From an uncultured Gemmatimonadales bacterium (lineage in GTDB: Bacteria > Gemmatimonadota > Gemmatimonadetes > Gemmatimonadales > GWC2-71-9), in the NCBI GenBank assembly GCA_963844035.1, contig CAWJMT010000010.1, forward strand, positions 1-64,000: DNA of 64,000 bases, written 5' to 3'. The notes below the pieces were generated by a model. It had not been told where the DNA came from and did no database searches. It saw only the letters and a list, made by a program, of their open reading frames with translations. A program made the position numbers and the translations under genes. Positions 32,122 through 52,792 of this stretch are shown piece by piece (the first letter of the stretch is position 1; each line of letters opens with the position of its first letter).

Positions 32122-33628
32122 TCACCGGACGGGGGTGAGCACGTTGGCAACCACGTACGCGCCGATCTGCCGGCCCATCGCCGCGCCGACGTTGCCGGAA
32201 GTGCGATAGTGCACGCCGTCGTAGATCCGGGCGTTGAGCACTTCGGTCGCGTAGTCCGACAGCCGCCGGTACCGGCGCGTGACGCCCGGGGCCGTTGGGC
32301 TGGTCAACGCGAACTCGGGCACGGTGTCGCCGAAGAGTTTCTCCAGGACCGTCGCCACGGCCGTCTGTGAGATGCAGTGCGCGCACGGGTATTCGGGATG
32401 GAGCGGCGTGGGAATGAGGGGCTCCCAGCCGGGATCGCGCGCGGTCGCCTCGTTGCCGTCCACGTCGCCGTTCCTGATCGCGGTCACCGGTCGCCAGAAG
32501 TTGTAGGTGTACTTGGCGTCGAACACGGCGATCAGGGCGTCCGCGGCGGCCATGCAGACCAGGGCGTAGACACGGGCCCGCTCCAATGGGGCCAGCTGCT
32601 TTGCCTCCACGACCTGCCGGGCGACCGGCAGGTAGGTGCCGGGCCCGACGTACTCCCAGAAGCGCGCGATCTCGGTCTGCTCGGGCGTCCGGGTGGAGCC
32701 GGTCTTGGCGCCCAGGCGCTTCACTTCGTCGTAGTCGGCCGCCCACTCTTTGCTCGTCAAGGCGGGGGGCGGGCCGGGACGGAACTGGTTCCCCGCTCGC
32801 AGCGCGAATGGTTTCACCGCGCCCCACGCGGAGCCGATCGGCAACACCGTGGGCACGTACGTGCCCGCCGTGGTGGTCGGGCGCCACACGTTGGGCGATT
32901 CCGCGCCGTCGCCGGCTCGCTCATTCCACAACCGGGTCGCGACGTCTTCGCCCAGGCGCACGGCGTTCGCGCGCGGTCCTTCGGGAACGGCGGCGATGGC
33001 GGACTGGAACGCCGAGTCGAGCGCCGCCGTGTGTGCCGGATAGGCGCGCACCAGGATGGAATGCGCGGCCGCAGCAGCCGCCGCGTCGCCGGCCGCTCCG
33101 GGTGTGGCCCGCGGCTGCTGGCGATAGGGGGTGTAGCGCGGCTCGATCGCGTTGAGGGCATCGAACATGGCCAGCGCCACGAGCGCGACGCAGCGTCCGT
33201 TCAAGGTGGGGGGAACGCGGGCGCGATATCCCACGGCCACCGCTCGATCGATCCAGTCGCCCACGACATCGCCGCTCGGCGGGGGCGAGGCGGGACCGGG
33301 ACCGGTGAGCCGCTGCCTGTGCCGGATAGGCGCGCAGCAGGATGGAATGCGCGGCCGCGGCGGCCGCCGCATCGCCGGCCGCTCCGGGGGTGGACCGCGG
33401 CTGCTGGCGATAGGGGGTATAGCGCGGCTCGATCGCGTTGAGGGCGTCGAACATGGCCAGCGCCACGAGCGCGACGCAGCGTCCGTTCAGCGTGGGTGGA
33501 ACGCCGGCTCGATATCCCACCGCCACCGCGCGATCGATCCAGTCGCCCACGACATCGCCGGCCGGCGGGGGCGGAGCGGGTACTGCGGCGAGGGTTACAA
33601 GCAGCATGAACGGCAGGATGGGTTTCAT
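32122..33628 (-). CDS. vanadium-dependent haloperoxidase / PAP2-family protein with duplicated N-terminal segment
   Basis: Signal peptide; AMFDALNAI; DAKYTYNFWRPVTAIR; HPEYPCAH; RIYDGVHYR; frameshift between the duplicated blocks. Confidence 0.85.
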
Positions 33629-33655
33629 AGGGGTGTTGGCTCCGGGACTGGAATT

Positions 33656-35037
33656 CTAGTGCGTGTTAGACTGCCGGTCGACATCCTTTTCCCAATCGGC
33701 CACGAGTTGCTTCAGCGTCACAACGACCTCCGGATGCCGGGCGGCGAGATCGCTGCGTTCGCCGGGGTCATCGTTGAGATCATACAGGAGGAGATGTCCC
33801 CCGTCGACCAGCAGCTTCCAGCGCCCCGACCTGACGGCGCGCTGTTGACGATTGGGCTGCGCGATGCGCCAGAACAGGTGGCGTTCCAGAAGCGGGGCGT
33901 CTCCGCGCAGGACGGGAAGCAGGTTGATCCCATCGGCACGGTAACCCTCCGGCACGCGGGTGGCGGTTGCGGCGAGAATCGATGCGGTGATATCGAACGT
34001 GAGCGCCGGCTGAGCGGACGTCCTGCCGGCCGGGAGCCGGCCGGGCCACCGCATGATCAAGGGCACGCGGATGCCGCCTTCCCACAGCGTCGCCTTGCGA
34101 TGAAAGAACGGCGCGTTGCGGGACAGCCACTCGCCGCCATTGTCGTTCGTGAAGATCACCAGCGTGTTGCTGGTGAGGCCGCGGCGCTCGAGCGCTGCCA
34201 CGATCTCGCCGACGCCCCGATCGGCCCGCTCGAGCATCCGCACGTAGTCCTGTCGCGTGGCTCGGAACGGAATCGTCGGGCAGCTGGACCAGCCGGCGCG
34301 GCGCGGTGCGCTCCGCCTCCGAGGGAGGCCGATCGGGCGGCTCGAACGGCCAGTGGACGGCGTTGTAGGCCACCTCGAGCGAAGAAGGGTCTGTCCGCGT
34401 GGCGGGTGATGAAGCTGACGCCCCGCCGCGTGATCTCGTCGGTGAGGTAGCCGGTGTGGCTCGACCGGCGTCGTATTCTCCCACAGGTCGGGGGGCCTTG
34501 CCGTCGATGCCCACGGCGCCGGTGTAGAAGTCGTGCGCACCGCCCAGAAACCCGTAGAACTCGTCGAACCCGTGGGCGTTGGGCCGAACTCGGGGTAGCC
34601 GCCGAGGTGCCACTTGCCGATGAGCCCGGTCGCGTAGCCGTGGTCTTGAGGAGGGCCGGCAGCGATGTGCGCGTTGCGGGGAGACCGCGGTCCCGATCCG
34701 CCGGCGCGAGGGTGATCGAGCGGCATTCGAGCCCGACGCGCTGCTGGTAGCGGCCGCTGATCAGGGCGACCCGGGTCGGCGACACACTGCGCCGTTGGCG
34801 TAGCAGTCGGTGAGGCGCACGCCTTCGCGCGCCAGGCGATCGATGTTGGGAGTGCTCGCGTCCGTCCCCCCGTAGCTACCGAGGTCGCCGTACCCCAGGT
34901 CGTCCATCATGACCAGGACGACGTTGGGTCTGGCGAACCGTCGTCTGGGGACTACGCTGAGCGATCAGGGTGGAAACCTGAGCGCACGCGACGAGAATCA
35001 ACGCGGCAACGAGGAAGGCTTGGTGCCTCAGGCGCAC
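33656..35037 (-). CDS. arylsulfatase (sulfatase family), frameshifted
   Basis: GTG start with signal peptide [18 protein letters not shown], then [50 protein letters not shown]. Confidence 0.9.
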
Positions 35038-35075
35038 AAACGCAATTCTACCTCACAACGACCGCGCCGCCAGCA
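35035..35075 (-). other. attC remnant retaining the TAGAAT-N7-GTG core
   Basis: GCTGGCGGCGCGGTCGTTGTGAGGTAGAATTGCGTTTGTG closely matches the left arm and loop of the intact attC at 42048-42187. Confidence 0.75.
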
Positions 35076-35083
35076 GAGGGGCG

Positions 35084-35290
35084 CTACGGCCGCAACGAGT
35101 CCGGGAGGGCCAGGCTGCAGGTGAGGCGGTTCCCGGCGGGCGTCGGTGTGAAGGTCGCCACCAGGGTCACGCCCGTGGGTGCTCCCGCTACGAGGCAGAA
35201 CCCGTTGATCTCACCGCACGCCGAGGCGCCGAGTCCCAGCGCGATGGGGACAACCCAGGAGGCGGTACGCCAAAGGCTCAGAGATCTCAC
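35084..35290 (-). CDS. short putative lipoprotein or gene remnant
   Basis: Signal-like N-terminus with LGASAC lipobox; stop abuts the attC remnant. Confidence 0.35.
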   Translation of the reverse strand: MRSLSLWRTASWVVPIALGLGASACGEINGFCLVAGAPTGVTLVATFTPTPAGNRLTCSLALPDSLRP

Positions 35291-35296
35291 GGAACC

Positions 35297-35782
35297 TCAA
35301 CCGCGGCGCGCCGCCTCGATGGCAGCGATCTCGATCTTCTGCATCAGCATCATCGCATCGAACGCGCGCTCGGCGGCAGCGCGATCGGGATCGGTGATCG
35401 CCTTCGTCAGGGCGATCGGCGTAATCTGCCAGGACAATCCCCATTTGTCCTTGCACCAGCCGCACGCGCTCTCCTGGCCGCCGTTGCCGACGATTGCGTT
35501 CCAGTAGCGATCCGTTTCGGCCTGGTCAGCGGTTGCGACCTGGAACGAGAACGCTTCGTTGTGCTTGAACGCAGGTCCGCCGTTGAGCCCGAGGCACGGA
35601 ACGCCCAGCACGGTGAACTCGACGGTCAACACGTCCCCTTTCTTCCCCGACGGAAAGTTGCCCGGTGCCCGGTGCACCGCGCCGACGGAGGAATCGGGGA
35701 AGGTCTTGGCATAAAACCGCGCCGCGTCCTCGGCGTCGCGATCGTACCACAGGCAAATCGTGTTCTTTGCCGGCTTCGCCAT
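35297..35782 (-). CDS. VOC family PhnB / 3-demethylubiquinone-9 methyltransferase-like protein
   Basis: NTICLWY, LNGGPAFKHNEAFSFQV, CGWCKDKWGLSWQI. Confidence 0.9.
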   Translation of the reverse strand: MAKPAKNTICLWYDRDAEDAARFYAKTFPDSSVGAVHRAPGNFPSGKKGDVLTVEFTVLGVPCLGLNGGPAFKHNEAFSFQVATADQAETDRYWNAIVGNGGQESACGWCKDKWGLSWQITPIALTKAITDPDRAAAERAFDAMMLMQKIEIAAIEAARRG

Positions 35783-35806
35783 GTCACTTCTCCATCGAGA
35801 TGAGCC

Positions 35807-36199
35807 ATGAAGATGAAGAGCTACGCGAGTTTCGACACATACCTCGCAGATCAGTCATCCGGGCATCAGCAAGTCATCCGATCCTTGCGACGACTCGTAA
35901 AGCGCGTGGCTCCCCACCTCCAGGAGGGCGTCAAGTGGGGCAATGGATGCTGGTTGAATGTGAAGGAGCCCGTCGCGTATGTCTACTCCGCTCCCGACCA
36001 CGTTCAATTCGGCTTCGTGATGGGCTCCGCGTTGAAGGACCCGGACAAGATGCTCCACGGCGAAGGCGCGTATGTGCGGCATATCAAGGTGTTCACGCCT
36101 TCCGACATTGACGAGCGGTCCTTCGGAGCCCTTCTGCTGCAAGCTGCAAGAAAGAAGCGACCGCTGGGACGCGCCGCCAAGTCATCGCGTCATAAGTGA
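35807..36199 (+). CDS. DUF1801 (YdhG-like) protein
   Basis: LRRLVKRVAP.L.EGVKWG, HVQFGF..G..LKDPDKML.GEG..VRHIK. Confidence 0.85.
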   Translation: MKMKSYASFDTYLADQSSGHQQVIRSLRRLVKRVAPHLQEGVKWGNGCWLNVKEPVAYVYSAPDHVQFGFVMGSALKDPDKMLHGEGAYVRHIKVFTPSDIDERSFGALLLQAARKKRPLGRAAKSSRHK

Positions 36200-37693
36200 A
36201 TCCCTGGCTGCCTCCCGGCGCTCGCTCTCCTCGACGACCAACCGGTAGGCGATGTAGTACTTGAAGATGTTCGCGACGTAGGTCACGGTCTCGCGCCCGA
36301 TGCGCTCGGACGCGATCACCTCCACGTTGCCGAACCAGACGTTGGGGTTGAGTCCGCGCTGCTCGGCTTCCTTCCGCAACTGGCGCACCCGGCCCACCCC
36401 CGCGTTGTACGACGCGAAGGTGAACAGCGCCTTGTTCAAGTCATCCATCGGCTCGTTCTCGAAGTACGCGTCCCGCACCGAGCGCATGTGCTTGACGCCG
36501 GCGTGGATGTTCGGCTCCAGTTCCGTGATGTCGCCGACCTTCAGGAGTTTGCCGGTCTCCGGCATGATTTGCATGACGCCGATCGCACCAACCGGGCTCC
36601 GCGCGTGCTGGTGGAGGCGGGACTCCTGGTAGCCCTGCGCGGCCATCAGCAGGTAGTCGACGTTGTACCGGTCGCTGTACTTCCGAAACAGCGCCACGAC
36701 CGAGAGAAAGGCCTTCCGCTCCGCCGCCGAGGTGGCGCCCTTCGCGTAGGTCGCCTTGACGAGGTAGTCGCGGTTGACTCGGTCGCCGAAGGCCGTGCCC
36801 AACCCATACTTCCCCATGAACGTGTTCAGCGCCGCGAGCAGCTGCGGGTTGTTCTTGCGGACCGCCACGGCGAGCGTTCCGCCGGTGCGCAGCGCGATGC
36901 TGTCGTGGACAATGAGGTACCGAAAGACCTTCTTCCAGAAGATGGCGAGATAGTCGTCGACCACCACCGCCGGGATCAGGCCGGCGTTCACCATCTCGAG
37001 CAGGTCGTCGTCCTCCAGGCCCGGCGGAGCGTCCCGGATCATCACCGGCGGCCGCCCCTGAACCTTGAACCGCTCGTTGAGCACGAGCAGGCTCTGAGTG
37101 TAGCCGCCAAATTCGCGGGCGAACACTTCTTTGCCTGACAGGTCCTCGAGGGAGGCGAACGTCGATTCGCCCGGAGCGCTGACCAGGATCTGGCGGACGT
37201 TCGTCCGTGTGGGGTCGCTGAACGCGACGTGCTGCTGCAGCTCGGGTGTCACCGGGACCTGCGCCGCAACCAGGTCCACCTTGCCGTCGATGAGCGCCGG
37301 CAGCAGCATGTCGCGCGGCAGAGGCAGGAAGATCACGTGGATCCTGTTGCTGGTGCCGGTCAGGAAGTGCTTGTTGAGCCGCTCCTCCATGAGCCGACCG
37401 TACTCGTACGCGATGCCGCGTTGCACGCCCCGGTCGACGAAATAGAACGTGCGATTGAACGTCACGCCGATCCGTACGACCCGTCGCTTCACCAGCGAGT
37501 CGAGGTCGCCGGTAAACGGCTTCAGCACCACCTCGCGCACCGACGGCGGCAGCTGCGTTTCGAGGACGGAGGGTGGGAGTGGCGCCTCGACCTCGTCGAT
37601 CGGCGGCGGCGGCGGCTTGTCGCCACCGCACGCCGTGCAGGCCACCACGGCGCCAACGAGCAGAACAGCAGCGAGTTCGACCCCTGCCCTCAT
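36182..37693 (-). CDS. MltF-like lytic transglycosylase with substrate-binding domain
   Basis: SBP_bac_3 region followed by AQGYQES, GAIGVMQ, ASYNAG, ETVTYV. Confidence 0.9.
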   Translation of the reverse strand: MRAGVELAAVLLVGAVVACTACGGDKPPPPPIDEVEAPLPPSVLETQLPPSVREVVLKPFTGDLDSLVKRRVVRIGVTFNRTFYFVDRGVQRGIAYEYGRLMEERLNKHFLTGTSNRIHVIFLPLPRDMLLPALIDGKVDLVAAQVPVTPELQQHVAFSDPTRTNVRQILVSAPGESTFASLEDLSGKEVFAREFGGYTQSLLVLNERFKVQGRPPVMIRDAPPGLEDDDLLEMVNAGLIPAVVVDDYLAIFWKKVFRYLIVHDSIALRTGGTLAVAVRKNNPQLLAALNTFMGKYGLGTAFGDRVNRDYLVKATYAKGATSAAERKAFLSVVALFRKYSDRYNVDYLLMAAQGYQESRLHQHARSPVGAIGVMQIMPETGKLLKVGDITELEPNIHAGVKHMRSVRDAYFENEPMDDLNKALFTFASYNAGVGRVRQLRKEAEQRGLNPNVWFGNVEVIASERIGRETVTYVANIFKYYIAYRLVVEESERREAARDSLMTR

Positions 37694-37705
37694 GATGGTC
37701 TCCTC

Positions 37706-37738
37706 ACCGCCTGTCAGCTTCAATCGCGCTTGTTAGAC
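37706..37738 (-). other. truncated attC (left arm only)
   Basis: GTCTAACAAGCGCGATTGAAGCTGACAGGCGG = R''/L'' arm; upstream ORF stops on the TAA of the R'' box; right arm replaced by the GAGGAG RBS of the MltF-like gene. Confidence 0.75.
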
Positions 37739-38008
37739 GGCACGTTCGTTCTCCGTGCGCTTCTTGTGCAACCATTCGGCCCAGGAAAGGAACCCGATCA
37801 TGCCAAAGATCAGGATAGTTACGACGCACATCACGAGTGTGAATACACCGGCAGGATTCTCCAGCAGGCGGTGCACGAGAGGTGTTAGAGGTGTATCCAA
37901 CGCAATTACGACGTAGAGAATTGCCACTTCCACCCCGGCCAGCACCGCGAGGATGATGAGCGCGCTGTAGTCGCGCGCAGTAGTTGGGTGCTGTGGAGGC
38001 TCGTTCAC
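37733..38008 (-). CDS. small two-TM hypothetical cassette protein
   Basis: Two hydrophobic helices; starts on the GTG of one attC remnant and ends in the R'' box of the next. Confidence 0.7.
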   Translation of the reverse strand: MNEPPQHPTTARDYSALIILAVLAGVEVAILYVVIALDTPLTPLVHRLLENPAGVFTLVMCVVTILIFGMIGFLSWAEWLHKKRTENERAV

Positions 38009-38058
38009 AAACGCAATTCTACCTCCAACGACGGGCGGCGCCAGCTTCAGGCGCGCGC
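38006..38058 (-). other. attC remnant retaining the TAGAAT-N7-GTG core
   Basis: GCGCGCCTGAAGCTGGCGCCGCCCGTCGTTGGAGGTAGAATTGCGTTTGTG; R'' box and right arm absent. Confidence 0.8.
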
Positions 38059-38071
38059 TCCGGTCGGCGTC

Positions 38072-38952
38072 TCACACTCTGGTCAGCAGGATCACGGGGA
38101 GCTCGGGAGGATTACCCCAGCGCGGCACCCAGGCGCTGCCGATCCCCGCGGACACGTATAACCACGTCTGGCCCACCCGTTTCAGTCCATGCAAGTAACG
38201 GCGGCCGAACTGGGATGGGGCGGTGATGGGACCGATGAGGGGCAAGTGTGCCTGGCCGTTGTGTGTGTGCCCCGACAGCATCACGTCCACACGCAGACCA
38301 GGCGGCAGATATTCGATGAGATCCGGGTTGTGTGAGAGCAAGATCCGGGGCACGTGGAGCGGAACCCCGACCAGGGCATCGTCCGGTCGAACCGCACGCC
38401 ATGGGAGAAGTCATCGACTCCCGCAATGGCCAGTACTCCCGTCCCACGGCGGATCAGGACGTGCTCATTGGTGAGGAGGCGCGCCCCGCCGCGCCGGACG
38501 GCCTCAGCGACAGCGTCGGGGTCGACCCAGTGATCGTGATTGCCCAGGACGGCGAGCGCGCCATCGCGCGCGTGGAATCGCGCGATGATCTCATCGAGCC
38601 GTCGGAGATCGTGGCGAGCGTGACTAACGAAGTCGCCGCCGAGGACGACAAGATCGGGCGCAAGCTCCTTCACACGCTCCGCCACGCGGGACAGCCACTG
38701 CTCGGGGACGGCCGGGCCGTGGTGCAGGTCGGTGACGAGCGCGATTCGATAGCCGGCGAACTCCGGGGCGAGATCGCGGACCGCGACAGGGATCTCGGGC
38801 GTGATGAGCCGAGCCTGCTCCCAGCGAAAGAACGGAGTGGCAATCCGCTCGGCCGCCCAGCCCAGGGGGACTTCGGTCAGGCGTTCAAGCACCGGAGCCC
38901 GACGCTCCCGTGATGGCGCTCGACGGCGGGGATGGAGAAAGAACCATTTCAT
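38072..38952 (-). CDS. metallophosphoesterase (YkuE-like), frameshifted
   Basis: TDLH, GGDF, LGNHD, AGVDD, LSHNPD, LSGHTH.GQ. Confidence 0.9.
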
Positions 38953-39070
38953 TGGCAGGCGATCCGTGGCGCACTAACGCCATTCTATACGGGTGGTTGC
39001 TTCGTTGCTGCGTTCCCGGGCGCCGGAGGATCCGGACCATAGACCGCGAAGGCGCTCGGCACTCCTTTGG

Positions 39071-39619
<549 letters not shown>

Positions 39620-39654
39620 GGGCGGCAAGTAGTCTTGGGGGCGCGGCGTCGCGG

Positions 39655-40236
39655 TCAGCGCTCGACGGCATACCGGGCCAGGAGCAGGCTCGAGCCGTCG
39701 AAGGTGCGGGTATCCAGCAGGCGGAGCGAGCCCGGCGGCCGCGTCTCGAACGCCCGCACGCCCTCGCCGACCACGCCGGCACCGATCATGAAGTGCAGCT
39801 CGTCCACCAGGCCGTTGGCAAGCAGGTCGTTCCAGAGGAGGTGACTGCCGAACATCAGGATTTCCCGACCCGGCCTCTCTTTGAGTGCGGCGACCTCCGC
39901 GTGCGCGTCCGCGCGCCGCACGACGCGGGTCGGACCCCACCCCTCGACTTCGCCGGGCTTCAAGCTGTTCGAGACCACGACCTTCTCGATGGCGGCGTTG
40001 AGTCGCGAAATCTCGCGCTCTACAGCCGGCTGGCTCACGTCCTCGGCGATCGCTGGCCAGTAGGACCGAAAGCCCACGTACGACTTGCGCCCGAGTAGCA
40101 GGGTGTCGGCCGCCCGGAGCCGTTCCGCGTTGTAGTCGGAGAAGCCGTCGTCGAACGGCATGGCCATGACGTCCCCGCCCGGGCCGGAGTAACCAGCCGT
40201 CAGCGAGACGATGTTGCGAGCGATCACCTTGCGCAA
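39655..40236 (-). CDS. dihydrofolate reductase family / RibD_C protein
   Basis: RKVIARNIVS, LLLGRKSY, KVVVSNSL, FGSHLLWNDLL..GLVDEL. Confidence 0.9.
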   Translation of the reverse strand: MRKVIARNIVSLTAGYSGPGGDVMAMPFDDGFSDYNAERLRAADTLLLGRKSYVGFRSYWPAIAEDVSQPAVEREISRLNAAIEKVVVSNSLKPGEVEGWGPTRVVRRADAHAEVAALKERPGREILMFGSHLLWNDLLANGLVDELHFMIGAGVVGEGVRAFETRPPGSLRLLDTRTFDGSSLLLARYAVER

Positions 40237-40518
40237 TGGATCAGGGTCGTTGATCGCCAACACGCTTCCAGGAGGCAGTGCGTGCACAGGTCATCCACCA
40301 ATAGGACGGTCGGGAACGTGAGCAGCACGTACCGCTGGGCCAGGGCCACGTTGTCGGCAAACCCCACGTCCCCGATCCGCCACCGACCCTGCTCCGGACC
40401 GATCATCGATCGCCGCAACCATCCCGGATCGAATGACGCCCTCGAGAATATGGCCCGCGACTACTGGCCCTGTGCCGGTGAGGTGAAAGACCCGGTGAAC
40501 GCTGAAGTACGCAGGCAT
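40224..40518 (-). CDS. small protein resembling EF-Tu/SelB domain II, frameshifted
   Basis: MPAYFSVHRVFHLTGTGPVVAGHILEGVIRSG resembles [21 protein letters not shown] of tuf in this window. Confidence 0.5.
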
Positions 40519-40596
40519 GTTGGAGGAATGTAAAGGGAAACCCTCCTCGCCGGTGTTCCTGTCTCCGCGCGACGGGTGCCGTTTCCATGATTCCCT

Positions 40597-40622
40597 AATA
40601 CTTAGGTATTGACAGAAGTATT
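40597..40622. promoter_or_regulatory. ArsR-type operator palindrome
   Basis: Perfect AATACTT-N12-AAGTATT upstream of the ArsR-SRPBCC pair, overlapping a TTGACA. Confidence 0.7.
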
Positions 40623-40670
40623 GCACGGTTGTAGGATCCCTCGGGCAGATCGGATAACCCGCGCACTGGG

Positions 40671-41024
40671 ATGGTGTCGGACATGGTTCAATCCGCAGCC
40701 GCTGACGACGTCTTTCACGCCTTGTCCAACCCGACTCGGCGGAAAGTCCTGGAGCGACTGTCGGTCGGACCCGCCACCGTCAGCGAGCTGGCGGCGCCGT
40801 TCGACATGCAGCTCCCGTCGTTCGTGCAGCACCTCTCGGTGCTCGAACAGAGCCGACTGGTGCGGTCGAAAAAGCGCGGGCGGGTGCGGACGTATGAGAT
40901 CGCACCCGAGCGGTTCAAGGTCGTGGAGGACTGGCTGACCGCGCGCCGTCGGTTGTGGGAAGCCCGACTGGACCGGTTCGACCACTACGTCAAACAACTC
41001 AAGGAGAAGGAAGCAGAATCATGA
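40671..41024 (+). CDS. ArsR/SmtB family regulator
   Basis: VFHALSNPTRR, TVSELAAPFDMQLPSFVQHLSVLE, GRVRT. Confidence 0.95.
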   Translation: MVSDMVQSAAADDVFHALSNPTRRKVLERLSVGPATVSELAAPFDMQLPSFVQHLSVLEQSRLVRSKKRGRVRTYEIAPERFKVVEDWLTARRRLWEARLDRFDHYVKQLKEKEAES

Positions 41025-41518
41025 GCAAGCAATTCACGATCGATCCGAAACTCGATTTCGCCATCGAACGGTTCATCGACGCTCCCACGCGGCTCGTCTG
41101 GGAAGCGTTGACGAAACCGGAGCATCTCAAGGAGTGGTACATGCCCAAGCCTTGGGGTCGTGTGGCGCGCGCCGAGATGGACGTGCGACCGGGCGGCATC
41201 TTCAGCATCGACATCGCCACGGGAGACGGTCAGGAGTTTCCCAACCTCGGCTGTTTCCTGGAAGTCATTCCGATGGAGCGGCTCGTCTGGACCTCCATGT
41301 TGTTCCCCGGCTATCGTCCGGCCGTCTTTGACGACATTCCGATCACCGCCATCGTCACGATGGAGACCGTGGGAACCGGCACTCGCTACGTCTTCACGGC
41401 GCTGCACCGGAACGAAGCGGACCTCGAGACAAACAAGACGTCGGGCTTTTACCAGGGCACCGAGATCGCCGTCGATCAGTTCGTGGCGCATGTGAAGTCG
41501 ATGAAAGTATTGACCTGA
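41021..41518 (+). CDS. SRPBCC / AHSA1 (START-like) protein
   Basis: IERFIDAP..LVWEALT.PEHLKEW, MDVRPGG, LEVIPMERLVWT; ATGA overlap with the ArsR gene. Confidence 0.9.
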   Translation: MSKQFTIDPKLDFAIERFIDAPTRLVWEALTKPEHLKEWYMPKPWGRVARAEMDVRPGGIFSIDIATGDGQEFPNLGCFLEVIPMERLVWTSMLFPGYRPAVFDDIPITAIVTMETVGTGTRYVFTALHRNEADLETNKTSGFYQGTEIAVDQFVAHVKSMKVLT

Positions 41519-41614
41519 GCGCCGGAGATAGTGCGACGCTCCGATCCGCCAGCGCTCCCGGTCATTCGGAGCTAGGGTGTTTGAGACCGCCTCGCGCAGC
41601 ACGGCGCCTGGCGT

Positions 41615-42010
41615 TCACTCATGTTCACCGGCTTCGACGCGCGCTCCGATTTGGCGAACGACATCGCGGATGTACTCCATCGACGCTGGATCCGGGCAGT
41701 CTCCGAAGTGATGCCATCGCCGCTGCTCGAAGAACAGGCAAGTCCGAAGTTCCGTGAGATTCCCGTTCCGCCGAGCGTTCGCGATCTCCGCACATCGCTC
41801 AAACGAACCCCAGTACGTATAGCCGTCGAACGATCGAGCGAACCGAGAAATGACGGGCCAATCCGCGTCTGCGGCAGGGACCAAGAGCGCCGTGAGATTC
41901 GCACTTGAAACGTTGCCCAGCTCTCGCAGTTGCGTAACCGAACTACTTCTGAAACGGTGCACGAAGGGCAGTGTGTCCAGTAGATAGCCTACTACGGCCT
42001 TCAAGGACAT
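41615..42010 (-). CDS. hypothetical cassette protein
   Basis: 131-aa ORF starting ~40 bp after the R' box of the intact attC, GGGGGA RBS; motif FA.SFDGY..LRTCLFFEQRRWHH. Confidence 0.7.
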   Translation of the reverse strand: MSLKAVVGYLLDTLPFVHRFRSSSVTQLRELGNVSSANLTALLVPAADADWPVISRFARSFDGYTYWGSFERCAEIANARRNGNLTELRTCLFFEQRRWHHFGDCPDPASMEYIRDVVRQIGARVEAGEHE

Positions 42011-42047
42011 CGGTCCCCCGTCGTACAGTGTGGCAGGCTGCAGGTCG

Positions 42048-42187
42048 GTCTAACGGAATGCGCGTAAGCTGCGGCGCCCCGCCCTGCCGGGCGCCCCGGT
42101 GATCAAGCCGCTCCACAGATGAAGACGGGCGCACAAACGCAATTCTACCTCCAAGAAGGCGCCGCCAGCTTCACGCGCTTGTTAGGC
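42048..42187 (-). other. intact integron attC site (140 bp)
   Basis: Minus strand GCCTAAC AAGCGCGTGAAGCTGGCGGCGCC ... GGCGCCGCAGCTTACGCGCATTCC GTTAGAC: RYYYAAC and GTTRRRY cores, complementary arms with bulges. Confidence 0.92.
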
Positions 42188-42191
42188 AGCG

Positions 42192-43272
42192 CGGATTCAT
42201 ATAGTAAGTGCAACACGGCCCCCGACGGAAAAGGTGACCTGGCGATACCATAGTCTTCAATCTCCGCCAAGAGAAAGAAGCCTACGATGATGTATCGCCA
42301 GATCACCTCGGAGGAAAGATACACGCTGGGCCTGCTCCGCCAGCGCGGGCTGGCCCCGGCCGCGATCGCCCGCGTGCTCGGGCGCCACCGCAGCACGATC
42401 GGCCGCGAGGTGCGGCGCAACGGCACGCCCCGCGACGGCTGCTACCGCCCCCAACTCGCCGACTGGTATGCGCGCGGCCGCCGCTCGCGGTCCCGGCGCA
42501 ACCAGCGGTTCACGGCGGCGGACTGGGACCAGGTGCTGGCCCTGGTGCGGGAGGACTGGAGCCCCGAGCAAGTGGCGGGCTGGTTGAAGCGCCACGGGCA
42601 CCTCTCGATCAGCCACGAGACGATCTACCGCCACATTTGGGCGGATCTGCGGCGCGGGGGCACGTTGCACCAGCATCTCCGCGGCGCCCGGAAACAACGG
42701 CGCAAGCGCTACGGCCGCTACGACAGCCGCGGCCGGCTCGCGGGCAAGCGCCCGATCACCGACGCGGCCCGCCGTCGTCGAGACCCGCACGCAGCTCGGG
42801 CATTGGGAGGCGGACACGATGCTCGGCGACAGCCAGGCCGGCCCGTGTGTGCTGAGTCTGGTGGAGCGCAAGACCGGGTACCTGCTGCTCGGGCAGTTAG
42901 CGGCGCATACCAGCGCGGCGGTGAATCAGCGCGCGCACCGCTTGATCGCGGCGCAGCCCCACCCGGTGCGGACCATCACCGTCGATAACGGCACCGAGTT
43001 TCACGACTACGCCGCGCTCGAGCGGGCCACCGCGACCGCCTTCTACTTCGCCACGCCGCATCACGCGTGGGAACGCGGCACCAACGAGAACACCAATGGC
43101 CTGGTCCGGCAGTACCTGCCGAAGCGCCAGAGCATGGCCCACCTCACCCAACACGATTGCAATCGGATCGCTGCGAAACTGAACCGCCGACCGCGGAAGC
43201 GCCTCGGCTACCGCACCCCGGAGGAATGCTATGCCTGAGGACCTCAGTGTTGCAGTTCAAAGTTGATATCAA
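42192..43272 (+). mobile_element. IS30-family insertion sequence
   Basis: Imperfect terminal IRs GATTCATATAGTAAGTGCAACAC / GTGTTGCAGTTCAAAGTTGATATC flanking the transposase. Confidence 0.88.
42287..43238 (+). CDS. IS30 transposase (DDE), frameshifted near 42765
   Basis: IARVLGRHRSTIGREVRRN, WSPEQVAG, ISHETIY, GHWEADT, TITVDNGTEF, WERGTNENTNGLVRQYLPK, LNRRPRKRLGYRTP. Confidence 0.95.
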
Positions 43273-43287
43273 ACGGCGACGCTTCCG

Positions 43288-43803
43288 TCACCGATACTGA
43301 ACCCTAAACGACCCCTCCGTCACCTGTAGGACCGCGGTCCCGCCGAGCTGCAGCGCCGAGAACGTGAATGTGCCTGCGACGACGTGCCTGGCAGCATCGA
43401 CGGCAGTGATGCGGACCTGGCCGATGCGGTCCGCCCACGGCGTAGCGAAGATCCGGACGTCGGAACCGGATTGGTCTAGGTACATCGTGTAGCTCCCAAT
43501 GTTGCTAGGATCGCGGTCATACGAGAGAGTGTACGTGCCGGTAGTCGCGTGAAAGTGACCCACCTGAAAGCCGAGCGCCTCTTGGTTATTGCCGAGCACA
43601 TCTGTCCTAGTTCCCCATACGGCGAACGTGCTGTCAGGAGTGAGCTCCGCAAACGCATCGCCATTCGTATCCATGGTCCAGCGTGTGCCATCGATGGTCG
43701 CGGTTACGAAGGGCGCTCCGTCCAGGCTTGGTCCTGTGGTGTCTGCACAGCCGACGACGAGTGCCATCAGGGCCATTGTGGGATAGCGTGGACGCATCGA
43801 CAC
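43288..43803 (-). CDS. DUF6252-like lipoprotein (first cassette)
   Basis: Lipobox LVVGC; TATIDGTRW; GQVRITAVD..VAGTFTF.A..VTEGSF; AAGGAG RBS. Confidence 0.7.
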   Translation of the reverse strand: MSMRPRYPTMALMALVVGCADTTGPSLDGAPFVTATIDGTRWTMDTNGDAFAELTPDSTFAVWGTRTDVLGNNQEALGFQVGHFHATTGTYTLSYDRDPSNIGSYTMYLDQSGSDVRIFATPWADRIGQVRITAVDAARHVVAGTFTFSALQLGGTAVLQVTEGSFRVQYR

Positions 43804-43837
43804 TCCTTCAGGGAAGCGTTAGGACGAACGCGTTGCC

Positions 43838-43862
43838 ACCTAACTCATAGTAGGTGTCTAAC
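43838..43862 (-). other. candidate attI site
   Basis: Minus strand CACCTAC-TATGA-GTTAGGT (L box, 5-bp spacer, R box as in attI1), with an extra GTTAGAC upstream; R box nearly complements the R'' (GCCTAAC) of the first attC. Confidence 0.55.
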
Positions 43863-44019
43863 CGGCTCCTGGGCCGCTCGTGCTCGGTGCAACCTACCCC
43901 CGAACGCCGTCTCCATCGCTGCCGGAACACGCTCCTTCGAATATGCCACCGATACCCGAGGACAGCGAGCCGACACCGGCACTATTAGGCCGCGCGGGGT
44001 GCGACCTTCGGCTCCCGCA

Positions 44020-44065
44020 GCCTAACACTCAAGACGCGACATTTGCCGTCACGCGCTTGTGAGAT
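44020..44065 (-). other. short degenerate attC-like hairpin after brnA
   Basis: ATCTCACAAGCGCGTGAC..GTCGCGTCTTGAGTGTTAGGC shares ACAAGCGCGTGA with the attC left arm and ends in GTTRRRY. Confidence 0.45.
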
Positions 44066-44074
44066 CGCTGCTTC

Positions 44075-44323
44075 TCAGGCGCTCGTCCCTCCACGCTTGC
44101 GACTGGGCTTCCATTTCATATCCAGCTTCCGGCCGCTCGCCGCGCAATCGCGCAGGTAGAGGTTGATGAGGGTCTGGTAGGGCAGGTCCAGGTCGCTCGC
44201 GAGGGCCTTGAAGTAGGCCACCGCTCCTGAATCGAGCCTGATGGTCACCGCCTGCTTGAGACGGCTCGCGTAAGGATTCGGCCTGCCATGGGAAAAGTCG
44301 TATTCGCGTCTCATCTGCTCCAC
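44075..44323 (-). CDS. brnA: BrnA-family antitoxin
   Basis: MRREYDFS..NPY..K.AVTIRLD..YFK..PYQTLINLYLRDC. Confidence 0.9.
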   Translation of the reverse strand: MEQMRREYDFSHGRPNPYASRLKQAVTIRLDSGAVAYFKALASDLDLPYQTLINLYLRDCAASGRKLDMKWKPSRKRGGTSA

Positions 44324-44607
44324 CCCTCGTCGTATTGTTGGCGCTCATACATCGTCGCTCGGCGAGCGGAAATCATCCGAATCGTTTCCGCGCGTTCGTC
44401 ATAGGTGTGTACCACCACAAGAACGCGAAAGGCCGTGCTCAGACCCACCAGCACGAACCGGTCCTCCCTGGCGGAGTGATCCGGGTCGTCGAGCAGGATC
44501 GCGTGCTCATCCGCAAACACCGTGAGCGCTTCCTCGAACGAGAACCCGTGCTTGCGTTGATTCTCTGCGTCCTTCCTCAGGTCCCACACGAACCGCGGAC
44601 CCGCCAT
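44311..44607 (-). CDS. brnT: BrnT-family ribonuclease toxin
   Basis: FVWD..K..N.RKHG.SFEEA..VF.D, DPDHS..EDRF..VG, VVVHT, IRMISARRAT. Confidence 0.92.
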   Translation of the reverse strand: MAGPRFVWDLRKDAENQRKHGFSFEEALTVFADEHAILLDDPDHSAREDRFVLVGLSTAFRVLVVVHTYDERAETIRMISARRATMYERQQYDEGWSR

Positions 44608-44611
44608 CGTT

Positions 44612-44640
44612 AATGTACGTACGCTGTATGTATGCTGCAA
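44612..44640 (-). promoter_or_regulatory. sigma70-type promoter of brnTA with overlapping palindromic operator
   Basis: TTGCAG-N17-TACATT, then 4 nt and ATG; imperfect palindrome TACATACAGCGTACGTA spanning the spacer and -10. Confidence 0.7.
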
Positions 44641-44669
44641 TAGAAAGAGCACAGCAGCGCGCCTCAGGC

Positions 44670-45653
44670 TCACAGAAAGTCTGCCGGGCTGCGCACGCCG
44701 AGCCCGCCACGGTTCAATACGTGGGTGTAGATCATCGTGGTTCGCACATCGCGGTGGCCGAGCAGCTCCTGCACGGTGCGGATGTCGTACCCTGACTCGA
44801 GGAGATGGGTGGCGAACGAATGGCGGAAGGTGTGGCAGGTCGCGCGCTTGGGAATCCCCGCGTCGCGCACAGCCTGGGTGACCGCGCGCTGGACCGCGCT
44901 GTCATGAAGATGGTCGCGCCGCCAGTCGCCGGTCGCTGGATCCCTATACCGACGCGTGGCCGGAAACACCCACTGCCACGGCCACGCTCGGCTCGCCCCC
45001 GGTACCTTGTGCGCGAACGCGCCCGGCAACACCACCGCCCCCGCACCCTCGCGCAAATCGCCTTGATGCTGACGCTCGACTCGCCGCAGGTGATCCACCA
45101 GGCGAGGCCGCACGCTCACCGGCAGCATCGTCACCCGGTCCTGCTCCCCCTTGCCCCGGCGGATCACAATCTCGCCCCGGCCGAAATCGACGTCCTTCAC
45201 GCGCAACGTAAGCGCCTCGAGCAGCCGCAGCCCACTGCCGTAGAGCAAGTACGCGACGAGCTGCGACACGCCTCGCACATGCGCGATCACGGCCTTCGCC
45301 TCCGCCGGAGTCAGCACCACCGGTAACCGCCCCGGCTCCCTCGCCCGCACCACAACGGCCGATCCGGCCAGAGGCCGTCCCAGAACCTGCGCGAACACAA
45401 ATTGGAGGGCGCTGGCGGCCTGGTTCTGCGTCGCCGCCGCGACGCCCCCCGGATCGGCGAGGGACAGGAGAAATCGCGGCACCTCGCCCGGATCTACCTC
45501 GGCGGGATGACGCATGCCGCAGAAACGCACGAATCGCCGCACCCAGGCGACGTACGCCTCCTCTGTGCGGGGACTGTAGTGACGCATACGCAGGGCCTGG
45601 CGCAACTGCGCGAGGAGTCTGGGTCGTTGGGGCTCGGCGGGAACCGGCGCCAT
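44670..45653 (-). CDS. intI: integron integrase
   Basis: [34 protein letters not shown], integron-specific insert VLP.A..HK.P.A...[34 protein letters not shown]. Confidence 0.97.
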
Positions 45654-45781
45654 CGCCCCACCGTATCGAGCAAACCGGCCGCCGCTGAATCAGAGCTACG
45701 CGACGGGGGCCTTTTTCACGCGGGACAATCCTACCGCTTCGCCCGAGTTTTCAAGATTGTGCGCAGGGCGTCATTGACGGG

Positions 45782-46243
45782 TCAACCCCAAAACGGGGTC
45801 AGAATCACCCAGAGCGCTGCCGCCACGACTATGGCACCAACGATGCTCGTAATGGCACCATACCAGAGGGCGGAATTCCCGCTGAGCTCGCGCCCGTCAC
45901 CAGGCCAGCGGCTGCGGATACGACCCCGGATCATGCCGTCGCGCACGCCGACGATCATCGCGCGGCCACCGATGAATAGCATCAGGAGAGCGAATGCAAA
46001 CCGGAGGAATAGCGGCTCGCCGCCGTACAGAGGTCGTACCGCCTAAGAAGGCGATGGAGGTTGGCGCAGGTTGCGCCACGCGGCGATCGCCCCCGAGATC
46101 ATCCCGATCGCGATGATCGATCCATAGATGATCAACAACGCGTTGCCGGTGCGACGGTATGCGAGGACCGTGAGGACGAGCAGGCCCGCCCCAACGAGGA
46201 TCAGGACGATGACAACGGCGATGTTGAAGGCCCTCATCTCCAC
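45782..46243 (-). pseudogene. membrane protein gene with a single in-frame TAG (or two small ORFs)
   Basis: ORFs 46043-46243 and 45782-45982 share one frame and are separated only by TAG at 46043-46045. Confidence 0.5.
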
Positions 46244-46249
46244 TCCTGA

Positions 46250-47030
46250 CTATTCACGGAGGAGCGCGCGGGTGCGATCCAGGTGCTGGGCCCCGATCAG
46301 CGCCACACCCTCGCGAAACAGCCACGCGTAGACGGAGCGCTCCTCCGGTACGTGGTGGATCCGAATCGGGACGCCGTATTCCGCCGCCAGACGACGAGCG
46401 GCTGCAAGCACCTCTTCATCGGCCGGCGGCACGATACCCCGCCCCGACCACCTCAGGGTCTTGCCGTAATCGATGCTGACAAGACCGATGCGGGTCGCGA
46501 AGGGTTGCTCAGGTGGCGTGTCCTCAGGGCCGAGCTGAAGCTGCACCCGCAGAAAGCTGGGCCACGAGGATGGATCGGCCCCCCCGCGCGGCCACCATCC
46601 GACCAAGCGTGACCCGGACGCTGGGTGGTGACTCGGGGCTCGGGGCTTGCAGGATCTCCTCGTAGGCGAGCAGTTGGGACACGAGGAGTCGAAACGCCGC
46701 GGCATCAGCTTCCTTGAGCTCGATATTGAGCAGGAATGGTATCGAGTCGGACAGCACATGACCGCAGGCGCGCTGCCGCTGCCGCAGCGGCTCGAGGTAC
46801 AGTCGTCGCAGCGTCCTCGACCCTTGGATCTCGCCGCGCCCGTGACCGACAAACAACTCCGTCCCCACGCGAACCAGATCGGCTTCCGCGCCCCGGTATC
46901 CGTACGCCAGCGCGTCGAACAGCGGGCGCCGGTTGTAGTAGTCGTTATGCGAATAGGCAGGCAACAGGAGGGGGGTTCCGCACGGTATCCCGCGACGCAA
47001 CTGCGGACAGTGCAGAGAGGACGAGGAGCG
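46250..47030 (-). CDS. PLC-like/GDPD phosphodiesterase (AIM6-like), frameshifted
   Basis: AYSHNDY..RPLFDAL..G..GAEADL..VGH..RTL..LYLEPL..LLNIELK. Confidence 0.7.
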
Positions 47031-47043
47031 CGAGGATCGGTGC

Positions 47044-47802
47044 TCAGTCGGCGGTGGTCAACACCCGCGGCGCGCCGCTCTCCCGAATCGCCACCGTATG
47101 CTCGAAATGCGCCGAGAGCGAGCCGTCCTCCGTGACCACGGTCCACTTGTCGTCGAGCGTGCGAATGTCGGCGCCCCCCACATTGACCATCGGCTCGATC
47201 GCGATCGTCATCCCCGCCACCAGCCGCGGCCCGCGCCTGGGCTTGCCATAGTTCGGGACCTGGGGCTCCTCGTGGAAGCTGGCGCCGATCCCGTGCCCCA
47301 CCAGCTCCCGCACCACCGAATACCCCGCCCCCTCGGCCACCCGCTGCACCGCGTGGCCGATGTCGCCGACGTGGTTGCCGGCGCGCGCCTGCGCCACCCC
47401 GGCCGCGAGCGCCTCCTGCGTCACGCGCAACAGGTTCTGGGCCTCCGCCGACACGGCGACCACCGGAAACGTCGCGGCGGAGTCGACGTGCAGCCCGTCG
47501 AGCCACACCCCCACGTCCACACTCAGGAGGTCGCCCTCCTTGAGGATCCGCTTGGGCGACGGGATGCCGTGCACGATCTCCTGGTTGATCGACGTGCACA
47601 GCGTGGCGGGAAAATCGTAGAGGCCCTTGAAGGACGGCTTGGCGCCGGGATGGCTGCGGATGAACTGCTCGGCGATCCGGTCCAGCGCCTCGGTGGACAC
47701 GCCGGGACGGACCTCCCGCGCCACCACCGCCAGCGTTTCGGCGAGGATGCGGCCGGCGACCGCCATCGTCTCGAGCTCGCGCGGCGACTTGATGGTGATC
47801 AT
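47044..47802 (-). CDS. map: methionine aminopeptidase type I
   Basis: CTSINQEIVHGIP, DVG..DSA, LVGHGIG..FHEEP, AIEPM, SAHFEHT. Confidence 0.97.
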   Translation of the reverse strand: MITIKSPRELETMAVAGRILAETLAVVAREVRPGVSTEALDRIAEQFIRSHPGAKPSFKGLYDFPATLCTSINQEIVHGIPSPKRILKEGDLLSVDVGVWLDGLHVDSAATFPVVAVSAEAQNLLRVTQEALAAGVAQARAGNHVGDIGHAVQRVAEGAGYSVVRELVGHGIGASFHEEPQVPNYGKPRRGPRLVAGMTIAIEPMVNVGGADIRTLDDKWTVVTEDGSLSAHFEHTVAIRESGAPRVLTTAD

Positions 47803-48362
47803 TGGCCGAGGATGCGGGTGATCTCGGTCGCGATCTCTTCCACCGAGCCGGTCCCCGGCACCCGGTGCACGTTGCCGCGCGGAGCGTAGTGGGCGATGAG
47901 CGGAGCGGTGTCGCGCTGGTACACCTGGAGCCGCGTGCGGATGGTCTCGGGCGTGTCGTCCGACCGCCGTTCGATCCCGGCTCGGGCTTGAATGCGCCGC
48001 ACCAGCTCGTCCTCGCCCACGTCCAGCAGCAGGATGTGCGTGAGCCGATGCCCTCGCTCGGCCAAGGTGCGGTCCACCAGCTCGGCCTGCGCGGCGTTGC
48101 GCGGGAAGCCGTCGAGGATGGCGCCCTGCGCCGCTTCCGGCTTCGCCAGCTCGTCCTTGATCAGGCCGAGGATGACGCCGTCGGGCACGAGCTGGCCCTT
48201 GTCCATGTATTTCTTGGCGTCCTTGCCGAGCGGCGTGCCCGCCTTGACGGCGGCACGGAGCAGGTCACCGGTGGTGATTTTGGGGAGGCCCAGGCGTTGC
48301 GCAAGAATGTTCCCCTGGGTGCCTTTGCCCGAGCCCGGAGCGCCGAGGAGGAGAATGAACAC
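47799..48362 (-). CDS. adk: adenylate kinase (short LID)
   Basis: GAPGSGKGTQ, TGDLLR, LDGFPR, RSDD. Confidence 0.97.
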   Translation of the reverse strand: MFILLLGAPGSGKGTQGNILAQRLGLPKITTGDLLRAAVKAGTPLGKDAKKYMDKGQLVPDGVILGLIKDELAKPEAAQGAILDGFPRNAAQAELVDRTLAERGHRLTHILLLDVGEDELVRRIQARAGIERRSDDTPETIRTRLQVYQRDTAPLIAHYAPRGNVHRVPGTGSVEEIATEITRILGQ

Positions 48363-48368
48363 GCGAGG

Positions 48369-49690
48369 CTACATGTACCGCTGGCGCCCGCGGAACTTGA
48401 CGCGACCTTCCTTCATGAAGCCGTCGTAGTGCCGGAGCAAGAGGTGCTGCTGCACCTGCTGAACCGTGTCCAGCGCGACGCCGACCACGATCAGGAGCGC
48501 CGTCCCACCGAACCCGAAGGGCATGTTGAGCACGTTGGAAATGATGATCGGCATCAGCGCCACGGCGGTCAGGAAGAGCGAGCCCGGCAGCGTGATGCGC
48601 GACAGCACCTCGTCGATGTAGTCGGCGGTCGCGGCGCCCGGTTTCACCCCGGGGATGAACCCGCCCTGCTTCTTCAGGTTTTCCGCCAGGTCCACCGGGT
48701 TGAAGATGATGGACGTGTAGAAGTACGCGAAGAAGATGATCAGCACCGCGCTGGTGATGATGTACACCCACGACGTGGTGTTGAAGTACTCGGCGAGGCG
48801 CTTCAGCGCCGGGTTGTTGCTGAAGGTCGCGAGCGTGCCGGGCACGATGATCAGCGACTGCGCGAAGATGATCGGCATCACGCCGGACGAGTTGATGCGC
48901 AGCGGGATGAACGTCTTCTGGCCTTCACGGATCCGCCCGCGGCCCATCACCTTGCGCGGGATCTGGATCGGGATGCGCCGCGCCGCCACCGTGACCGCCA
49001 CCGTGCCCGCCACCACGAAGACCATGATCGTGAGCACGATGAGCAGCGTCGGGAACGACAGCGAGTGCGCCCGCAGCGCCTCGATGGTCCGCAGCGTTTC
49101 GGGCCACATCCGCTCGACGATCGAGAAGAAGATCAGGAGGCTGGCGCCGTTGCCGATGCCCCGCTCGGTGATCTGCTCGCCCAGCCACATCACGAAGATG
49201 CCGCCGGTCGAGAGCGTGAGCACCGTGGTCATGCGGAAGCCCCACCCCGGACTCGCCACCGCCCCCGGCAGCTGCTCGGAGAACACCGCGTAGCCGTACG
49301 CCTGGAACACGCACAGGATCACGGTCAGGTAGCGGGTCCACTGCGTGAGCTTCTTTTTGCCCTTCCTCGTCGCGCTGCATCTTCTCGATCGCCGGGAACA
49401 CCGGCGCCGCGAGCTGGAATACGATGCTCGCCGAGATGAAGGGCATGATGCCGAGCGCGAAGACCGTCGCGCGTGAGAAGCCGCCGCCCGCGAACAGATC
49501 GTACAGGCTGAACAGCGTGCCCTGCCCCGCGGTCTTGAGGAAATCCGCCAGGGCCGAGACGTTCACGCCCGGGCGTCGCGATGTGCGCGCCGATCCGGTA
49601 CACCAGCAGGCAGATGAGCGTGACGGAAAACTTTTCCCAGAGATCCTCCGGGAACTTGAACACGTTCATCCAGTTGGGAAGCCGAAACAT
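48369..49690 (-). CDS. secY: preprotein translocase SecY, frameshifted
   Basis: FALGIMPFISASI, WLGEQITERGIGNG, GVMPIIFA, GGFIPGVKPG, GGTALLIVVGV. Confidence 0.97.
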
Positions 49691-49697
49691 GGATGGC

Positions 49698-50269
49698 TCA
49701 GGCCTCGATGGTTCCGCCCGCCTGCTCGATCTTCGCGCGCGCGGATGCGGACACCGCGACGCTCTTCACCACGAACTTCCGGGCGACGTCGCCCGTGCCG
49801 AGCAGCTTGATGGCATGATCCGGCCGGCCCACCAGCCCGGCGCCGAACAGCGTATCGGGGGTCACCTCGACGCCCTCAGCGAGCGTGGCGAGCTGGTGCA
49901 CGTTGACGACCTGCGCGATCTGCTTGAACGGATTGGTGAAGCCGCGCTTGGGGATGCGCCGGATGAGCGGCATCTGGCCGCCCTCGAACCCGGGGCGCGT
50001 GCTGCCGCCCGAGCGCGCCGTCTGGCCCTTGCCGCCGCGGCCGGCGGTCTTGCCCAGCCCCGAGCCCGGCCCGCGTCCCTTGCGGAGACGCGCGCGATGC
50101 GAGCCGACGGGCGGCTTCAGGCTGTGGAGCGTCACCCGCGCCACGGCGGCGGCTGCGGCGGCCGGCACGCGCCTTCGCTTTCGCGGCCGCGCCGCCGGTT
50201 TCGTCGGTTCTTGCCGCTTGTCTTCGCGCTTCGGCTGCGGCCTTCGCGCGGTTTCTTCTCCTTCGCCAT
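49698..50269 (-). CDS. rplO: 50S ribosomal protein L15 with N-terminal extension
   Basis: GRGPGSGLGKTAGRGGKGQ, GFEGGQMPL. Confidence 0.95.
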
Positions 50270-50271
50270 CG

Positions 50272-50539
50272 TTACTCCCGAGCCTTGGCGGGCGTCACCT
50301 CGATGAGGTGGCGCACCTTGTAGAGCATGCCGCGCAGCGACGGGTGATCGGTCTTGACCACCACGTGCCTGATGGTGCTTGAGGCCCAGGGCCTCGAGCG
50401 TGCGACGCTCGGGCGCCGGGCGGCCGATGCCGGACCGCACCTGCTCGATGCGCAGCTGCCCCTTGCCTGCGGGCGGCATCTTCCGGTCGCGGCCCGGTTT
50501 GCGCTTGCGGAACCGGCGTGTCGGGGGAAGCCTACCCAC
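50272..50539 (-). CDS. rpmD: 50S ribosomal protein L30, frameshifted
   Basis: [31 protein letters not shown]. Confidence 0.9.
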
Positions 50540-51251: not shown

Positions 51252-51622
51252 CAGAACTCCAATCCGCCTTTGCGCGCGCCCTCGGCCACAGCCTTCACCC
51301 GCCCGTGGTAGCGATAGCCCGCCCGGTCGAATACGACCTTCGTAATGCCCTTGGTCTTCGCCTTCTCGGCGACCAGCTGGCCCAGGGCAAAGCTCTTGCC
51401 GGTCTTCCCCTTCGCATCCGCCGGGATCCCCTCACTCCGGTCGGACGCTCCGAGCAACGTCACCCGGGCGTCATCGTCCACCAGCTGCGCGTAGGTGTGC
51501 TTCGACGACCGGAACACCACGAGCCGCGGACGGGCCGCCGTCCCGCGCACCTTCTTCCGGACGCGGAGGTGGCGCCGATAGCGCTCGTCGGCGCGCGTCT
51601 TGATCCTGTAGAGTGAGCGCAT
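51251..51622 (-). CDS. rplR: 50S ribosomal protein L18
   Basis: [25 protein letters not shown]. Confidence 0.97.
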
Positions 51623-51624
51623 GG

Positions 51625-52173: not shown

Positions 52174-52182
52174 GCGCCGCTC

Positions 52183-52579: not shown

Positions 52580-52595
52580 CTCGTCCTTCCGTCCT

Positions 52596-52781: not shown

Positions 52782-52792
52782 CCGAGAATCTC

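Follow-up and report, generated by a model that had tools for sequence, protein, structure and literature searches.

The attC site of the locus

In this work we have analysed a stretch of 64,000 nucleotides (the window) from an uncultured Gemmatimonadales bacterium (GCA_963844035.1, contig CAWJMT010000010.1, positions 1 to 64,000), in which an integron integrase is followed by a decaying array of gene cassettes on the same strand. Our subject is a TAGAAT box which lies 7 nt ahead of a GTG codon in the loop of an attC recombination site, and the short open reading frame (ORF), called here the mini-ORF, which this GTG opens. The features at and around the intact site are:

44670..45653, minus strand, integron integrase (TIGR02249, 412 bits, cut-off 265), with the array behind its 3' end
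42048..42187, minus strand, intact attC of the long subfamily (R'' 42181-42187, L' 42061-42072, core 42048-42054)
42142..42168, minus strand, predicted promoter inside this attC (weak -35 region 42163-42168, TAGAAT 42142-42147)
42050..42134, minus strand, position of the mini-ORF, from the GTG to the TAG of the core site
41615..42010, minus strand, ORF of the next cassette, 131 aa, no family match, its ATG 39 nt past the core TAG

The site at 42048-42187 has an inverse core RYYYAAC and a core GTTRRRY flanking the L''/L' inverted repeats of an attC hairpin, and both arms are paired in its centroid structure, with a folding z-score of only -1.27; RNA folds otherwise added nothing informative. 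Both the arm search and the fold agree with an earlier note on this DNA that it is the sole two-armed attC in the window. As is usual for attC, these sites close single-gene cassettes at the 3' end, and the array has an integron integrase; tandem arrays are found on another contig of the same genome (C35) and in relatives. Six close copies of this attC lie in the C35 array. The box is repeated across attC loops, unlike the single platform promoter Pc of intI/attI.

Within the window, TAGAAT-N7-GTG occurs four times, always on the minus strand (35035-35050, 38006-38021, 38972-38987 and 42132-42147) and exactly where the earlier note had placed it; 0.08 copies are expected, and none of 100 shuffles reached four. 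Behind another attC remnant there is a fifth TAGAAT (33653-33658), which had been overlooked. Three of the four copies are identifiable as attC-derived, and the one with its GTG at 38974 is not. That GGAGG is absent from some copies was seen correctly, since it stands ahead of TAGAAT only at 42147 and 38021. As a Shine-Dalgarno (SD) sequence for the attC GTG it was ruled out by its spacing of 13 nt and its absence from most copies.

A leaderless promoter signature in one attC subfamily

A TAnnnT hexamer at such a spacing before a start codon is the mark of leaderless transcription. We surveyed start codons in the host's own genome, with candidate starts taken from a crude gene finder. For ATG (2363 candidates), TAnnnT peaked at spacers of 6-9 nt, with 38-41 occurrences each against 1-12 at most other spacers; for GTG (3110 candidates) the peak was at spacer 7, with 25 against 3-13 outside 6-8. 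Further upstream of the host TAnnnT, TTG was enriched at 17-18 nt (22/176 at spacer 17). As these peaks are genome-wide, leaderless promoters of this form are normal in the organism, and the box in the attC loop, a TAnnnT 6-8 nt ahead of a start, has the same sigma-70-type leaderless arrangement.

How widespread is the box? Judged by its arms only, the attC family is present in 49 of the 301 genomes of the host's family, a tally which takes in two unpublished genomes. The TAGAAT form turned up in 15/192 family genomes and in none of 208 from two sister families, and in five sister-family genomes the matches to attC right arms were no more numerous than in the control. The carriers of the box subfamily are members of one Gemmatimonadales family of soil bacteria. 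In metagenomes a scan for the TAGAAT form yielded 143 loci, with about 2800 estimated in all, and the spacer between the predicted -35 and -10 was 17 bp in 148 of 154 distinct metagenome sites, with a search pattern that allowed 16-18. The same spacer is 17 in most relatives and 15 in the window's intact attC. A looser pattern, scanned over contigs, returned 121 loci in scattered unrelated taxa, which were excluded from all counts.

We also examined 59 array stretches from relatives. Among 208 arm-defined attC loops, the window's own genome excluded, TAnnnT-N7-RTG was present in 37, whereas the reverse strand had 1 and shuffles had 2.4; the figure of 37 is inflated because 12 of the stretches were picked by a TAGAAT pattern. 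The hexamer varies within TAnnnT (TAGAAT, TACAAT, TAGTCT and others). By these counts the TAGAAT box is real, yet it is a trait of one attC subfamily, and for this reason the earlier expectation that TAGAAT would be conserved more than the arms fails at the level of the family. The proposal of a leaderless promoter in the attC loop keeps its -10 box, its leaderless spacing and the statistics behind them, and loses its generality.

A mini-ORF that ends at the cassette junction

Could the next cassette gene begin at the GTG in the attC loop, as had been proposed? The frame which this GTG opens extends over the right arm and has the core-site TAG as its stop codon in 113 of the 124 metagenome sites with a right arm, and in 41 of the 49 box-bearing sites in genome stretches (one duplicate included). 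When starts were set by TAnnnT-N7 alone, 177/193 were in frame with the core TAG and 174/193 were open. The stretch from start to TAG has two main lengths, 42 nt (157 sites, 14 codons) and 81 nt (19 sites, 27 codons); on the left of the start the distance varies without any triplet pattern (26, 29, 33-35, 62-63). The next gene begins at a median of 27 nt past the TAG (250 junctions) in a frame which is random relative to the TAG (80/90/80), and in the window GTG 42134 is out of frame with ATG 42010. The start codon in attC, as these frames indicate, normally serves the mini-ORF and not the next gene. A short open frame that ends just before the next cassette gene is also the hallmark of ORF-11 of class 1 integrons, although ORF-11 proper is located in attI and the mini-ORF sits in attC.

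The frame is found throughout the attC family. Of 439 arm-defined attC (225 of them from metagenome loci), 369 had an open start in the mini-ORF frame and 114 had one in the other open frame; of the 17 loop clusters with three or more members, the numbers were 14 and 2. The peptides have in common only those residues that are forced by the DNA of the arms.

Taking the box and the frame together, we consider it probable, with appreciable doubt, that in this attC subfamily the -10 box 7 nt before the GTG is a promoter whose leaderless mini-ORF leads to re-initiation on the next gene. RNA polymerase would start at the attC GTG, and the transcript, which would therefore be without the left arm, could not form the attC hairpin. 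Ribosomes would load on the GTG without an SD sequence, cross the right arm, stop at the TAG of the junction and re-initiate on the gene of the next cassette, so that each box-bearing attC would express whichever cassette lies behind it, without Pc. The mini-ORF peptide itself is probably irrelevant, because its variable part is not conserved.

Several observations weigh against this explanation. Most attC of the family are without the box, the -35 hexamer is weak (77th-85th percentile under the host matrix), an extended -10 TG is found in 77/194 only, and a consensus promoter scan of 33500-46500 did not have 42147, 38021 or 35050 among its listed sites. The window's own attC is one base off frame (82 nt, against the 81 nt or 27 codons of most subfamily copies), and of the six C35 copies three have the 27-codon frame and three are off frame or broken. 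Under a column-permutation null the short class had 3 stops against 5.9 (P = 0.04), and as only the two length classes (42 and 81) are independent, an in-frame arrangement by descent has a 1-in-9 prior. An SD sequence is no rarer before the cassette genes (66/250) than before host genes (295/1107). Of seven RNA runs with 5-6% of the sequence words, four were aligned; these were contigs of other organisms and showed no starts. As regards the frame offsets, the ribosomal protein operon of the window (47000-63000) has secY in two frames and truncated L4, S5 and EF-Tu, indicating uncorrected assembly indels, and since these hit even essential genes, single-base offsets in this genome carry little weight.

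Another explanation, which we regard as unlikely, is that the mini-ORF is translated from read-through mRNA, made from the integrase promoter or others, by SD-led or re-initiating ribosomes which melt the hairpin, with TAGAAT inactive. It accords with the box-less subfamilies, which retain the mini-ORF in 56/58, 14/17 and 47/59 sites, in the last two behind GGAGG or AAGGA-like (SD-like) motifs, and short ORFs in attC have been reported to relieve the block by the hairpin (PMC8876359). However, many sites of the box subfamily have no GGAGG, and where it occurs it is 13 nt away from the GTG; read-through also gives no account of the remnants described below which keep TAGAAT after their GTG has been lost.

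Still more doubtful is the idea that the loop is simply inherited with the attC and constrained by hairpin geometry only, the box, spacing and frame being coincidences fixed in a few ancestors. The small number of independent lineages, the weak column-permutation result, the weak -35 and the confinement of the box to one family are all in its favour. It has to contend with the stops in the variable part of 144 distinct variable loops, which by frame number 0, 48 and 15 (24 +/- 4.8 when shuffled) and are absent from the mini-ORF frame, with a frame kept across subfamilies whose left halves differ, and with the selective survival of the -35/-10 segment in this genome.

Remnants of attC in this genome

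The remnants in the window and the genes behind them are:

38006..38052, minus strand, left-half attC remnant of the short subfamily (L'', -35 region, 17 bp, TAGAAT, N7, GTG), 33.7 bits
37733..38008, minus strand, 91-aa membrane protein, a former cassette with the attC GTG as its start (23 homologues, 15 aligned)
37707..37738, minus strand, attC remnant with R''/L'' and no -10 box, then an SD-like motif before the SLT gene
35035..35074, minus strand, promoter-only attC remnant (-35 region, 17 bp, TAGAAT, N7, GTG and four attC bases), 28.2 bits
33656..35037, minus strand, sulfatase gene, frameshifted in the assembly, with a CTG two codons past the attC GTG in the column of the homologue Met
33653..33671, minus strand, short attC remnant (R'') then TAGAAT, 24 nt before the ATG of a PAP2/VCPO-type gene

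Matrices from whose training this genome was left out, used at a threshold of 18 bits, located the -35/-10 segment at 17 places in the genome and at none in the reversed genome. At 12 of the 17, on contigs C3, C4, C10, C27 and C35, neither arm reached its threshold and only the promoter part remained. Lone right-arm remnants numbered only two, one of them borderline, though the right-arm matrix is the richer in information. What has become of the start codon differs among the 12: in five a start 7-8 nt past the box is in frame with a gene (38008 and 35037 among them), in two the GTG is kept out of frame, and in five it is lost. Four of these last five are ahead of genes with SD-like motifs, and TAGAAT or TAAAAT is intact after loss of the GTG in 4/12.

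At 38006-38052 R'' and the right arm are gone, and the stop codon of the membrane protein gene sits in the R'' of its own attC remnant. The earlier note had GTG 38008 as the start of this 91-aa ORF, which holds up, as its homologues come into alignment at about that column. A partial paralogue on C35, whose upstream sequence is different, and the closest homologues are about six codons longer upstream and have Val or Ala at the position of the GTG; in more distant homologues the start falls on this column or on the one before.

GTG 35037 had been assigned to the sulfatase signal peptide. It does align with the N-termini of homologues, but it is one base off the core frame. Among 60 relatives only one homologue of the sulfatase was found. 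The gene is spread across three frames, probably through assembly error, since the window's essential genes are broken too. As the bases from GTG to CTG match the attC loop, it seems that the start from attC has taken the place of the native one, as it seems to have done at 38008. At both 38008 and 35037 these alignments support the capture of the attC GTG, in frame, by the gene downstream. At the third remnant, the paralogue of the PAP2/VCPO-type gene on C35 has TAGAAT 8 nt before the same ATG. The 5' part of this gene is duplicated in the window (32921-33628 and 32122-33372; about 270 bp, 92%), and the C35 paralogue is single copy.

Deletion of the right arm would then fix a cassette in place with its promoter often kept, and the kept promoter would drive a gene which has its own SD sequence or, in the minority of cases, donate an in-frame start as at 38008 and 35037. 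Start-codon donation by remnants is a minority outcome, seen in 5/12 here and 4/18 elsewhere. Outside this genome a screen for half sites called many intact sites half, and we kept only rows with a right-arm score of <=13, 20 in all, 18 with a start codon and two without. The 4/18 in-frame fusions are at chance level, and two of the four have a later ATG. Two remnants, 37707-37738 and one at C35 17236, kept an arm and not the box. In the arrays of relatives promoter-type sites were not enriched among the broken ones (5/53 against 36/223), a comparison confounded because ungapped matrices miss intact sites that bear indels and because the stretches were chosen around attC. Promoter-only copies, few in number, occur in two relatives of the genus too. 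The suggestion that the box is kept when the arms are lost is supported by the 12 promoter-only remnants of this genome, and the bias was not reproduced in relatives.

This lack of asymmetry in the relatives' arrays, together with the several copies far from intact arrays (C3, C4 and C27), could mean that the promoter-only copies are an ordinary family of host promoters and not decayed attC, which would affect only the fixation step. We give this little credence, as 8/12 have L''-like bases directly upstream, several keep attC loop sequence downstream, and five lie in or near the two arrays. The strict form of the earlier proposal, in which the next cassette gene takes the attC GTG as its start codon, is true of some remnants (38008, 35037 and C35 27274); for intact sites it is refuted by where their frames end, unless the TAG is read through, and is scarcely credible.

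Three attC (L219, L232 and L307) are cut at the same point of L', and one and the same foreign sequence follows in all three, as would be expected of an insertion sequence which targets attC.

The TAGAAT-N7-GTG at 38972-38987 deserves a separate comment:

38972..38987, minus strand, TAGAAT-GGCGTTA-GTG, look-alike not derived from attC

It had been counted as a further copy of the attC core, with its GTG at 38974. No attC arm and no match at 16 bits were found there, the GTG is out of frame with the metallophosphoesterase gene, and in 15 of the 71 homologues the N-termini all coincide with the column of ATG 38952 or differ from it by a few residues; the arm search and these N-termini rule out 38974 both as an attC copy and as a start codon. 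Upstream regions of the homologues were uninformative. Possibly the box is the metallophosphoesterase gene's own -10 box.

Relation to known integron expression devices

In the working model of integrons, a cassette distant from Pc is silent, and attC serves recombination as a structural signal or is at most a brake on expression. If our explanation is true, a built-in promoter and a translated mini-ORF would let the upstream attC set the expression of a cassette, and shuffling would therefore alter expression by neighbour and not by distance. The remnants would offer a concrete path by which a mobile cassette becomes a fixed gene, and two junctions of the window, 38008 and 35037, are readable at base level.

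Small ORFs in attC enhance downstream translation (Jacquier et al. 2009, as told in PMC8876359 and PMC11511950), and such short ORFs have been called few and anecdotal (PMC11511950). They share with the mini-ORF a small frame across attC and a proposed termination and re-initiation on the next cassette. Ribosomes enter them from the upstream gene, whereas here the frame is family-wide and ends on the core TAG, with a leaderless promoter of its own predicted in one subfamily. ORF-11 and ORF-17 of the class 1 attI likewise are short upstream ORFs delivering ribosomes to poorly initiated cassettes (PMC11511950, PMC8876359), but they serve the first cassette only, under Pc, and the mini-ORF travels with each attC. 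A result that weighs against our explanation is that deletion of attC had little effect in most class 1 cassettes tested (PMC11511950).

Pc-independent transcription is known in long arrays, where 5' ends inside the attC of one Vibrio cassette (F2) were called possibly spurious (10.1101/2023.11.21.568050). Cassette-borne promoters and gene-less promoter cassettes provide such transcription as the attC box would, but they lie in the cassette body (10.1101/2023.11.21.568050, PMC2945992) and the box has a fixed place in the attC loop. Group IIC-attC introns also put a promoter at the attC position which drives downstream cassettes; it comes from the inserted intron (PMC3001079), and no such element is present here. 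Deletion of attC has been proposed to domesticate genome-inserted cassettes by fixing them in the chromosome (10.1101/2022.09.11.507474), a process that needs a resident promoter nearby, whereas here the attC remnant itself would be the promoter. In the literature covered, mostly the main texts of open-access papers, no description of a conserved promoter in attC loops came to light.

The feature adds to the known expression devices of integrons, and the ideas of a promoter and of domestication stand in part. Perhaps these attC are self-contained expression modules, with promoter, leaderless loading, hairpin bypass and junction stop, which free arrays from Pc, and the decay of their arms seeds the chromosome with promoters and starts while fixing cassettes; we offer this wider picture tentatively, as one that may well prove too broad.

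Other features of the window and the second array

Between 44075 and 45653 a BrnT/BrnA toxin-antitoxin pair adjoins the 3' end of the integrase gene, and no attI was identified. From a sigma-70-like site at 45756-45785, transcription could continue into the array. An IS30-family element at about 42240-43270, with its transposase in two frames, lies on the opposite strand just upstream of the only intact attC. The second array (C35 8300-33000) has no integrase match. It and the window have distal genes in common, in the same order and with 84-99% identity, and the attC remnants ahead of the same genes differ. Elsewhere in the window, roughly 11 copies of a tandem repeat of about 270 bp, 72-82% identical, occupy 19559-22548, and a palindromic repeat of about 70 bp at 60690-60779, beside the EF-G/EF-Tu genes, has many copies on other contigs.

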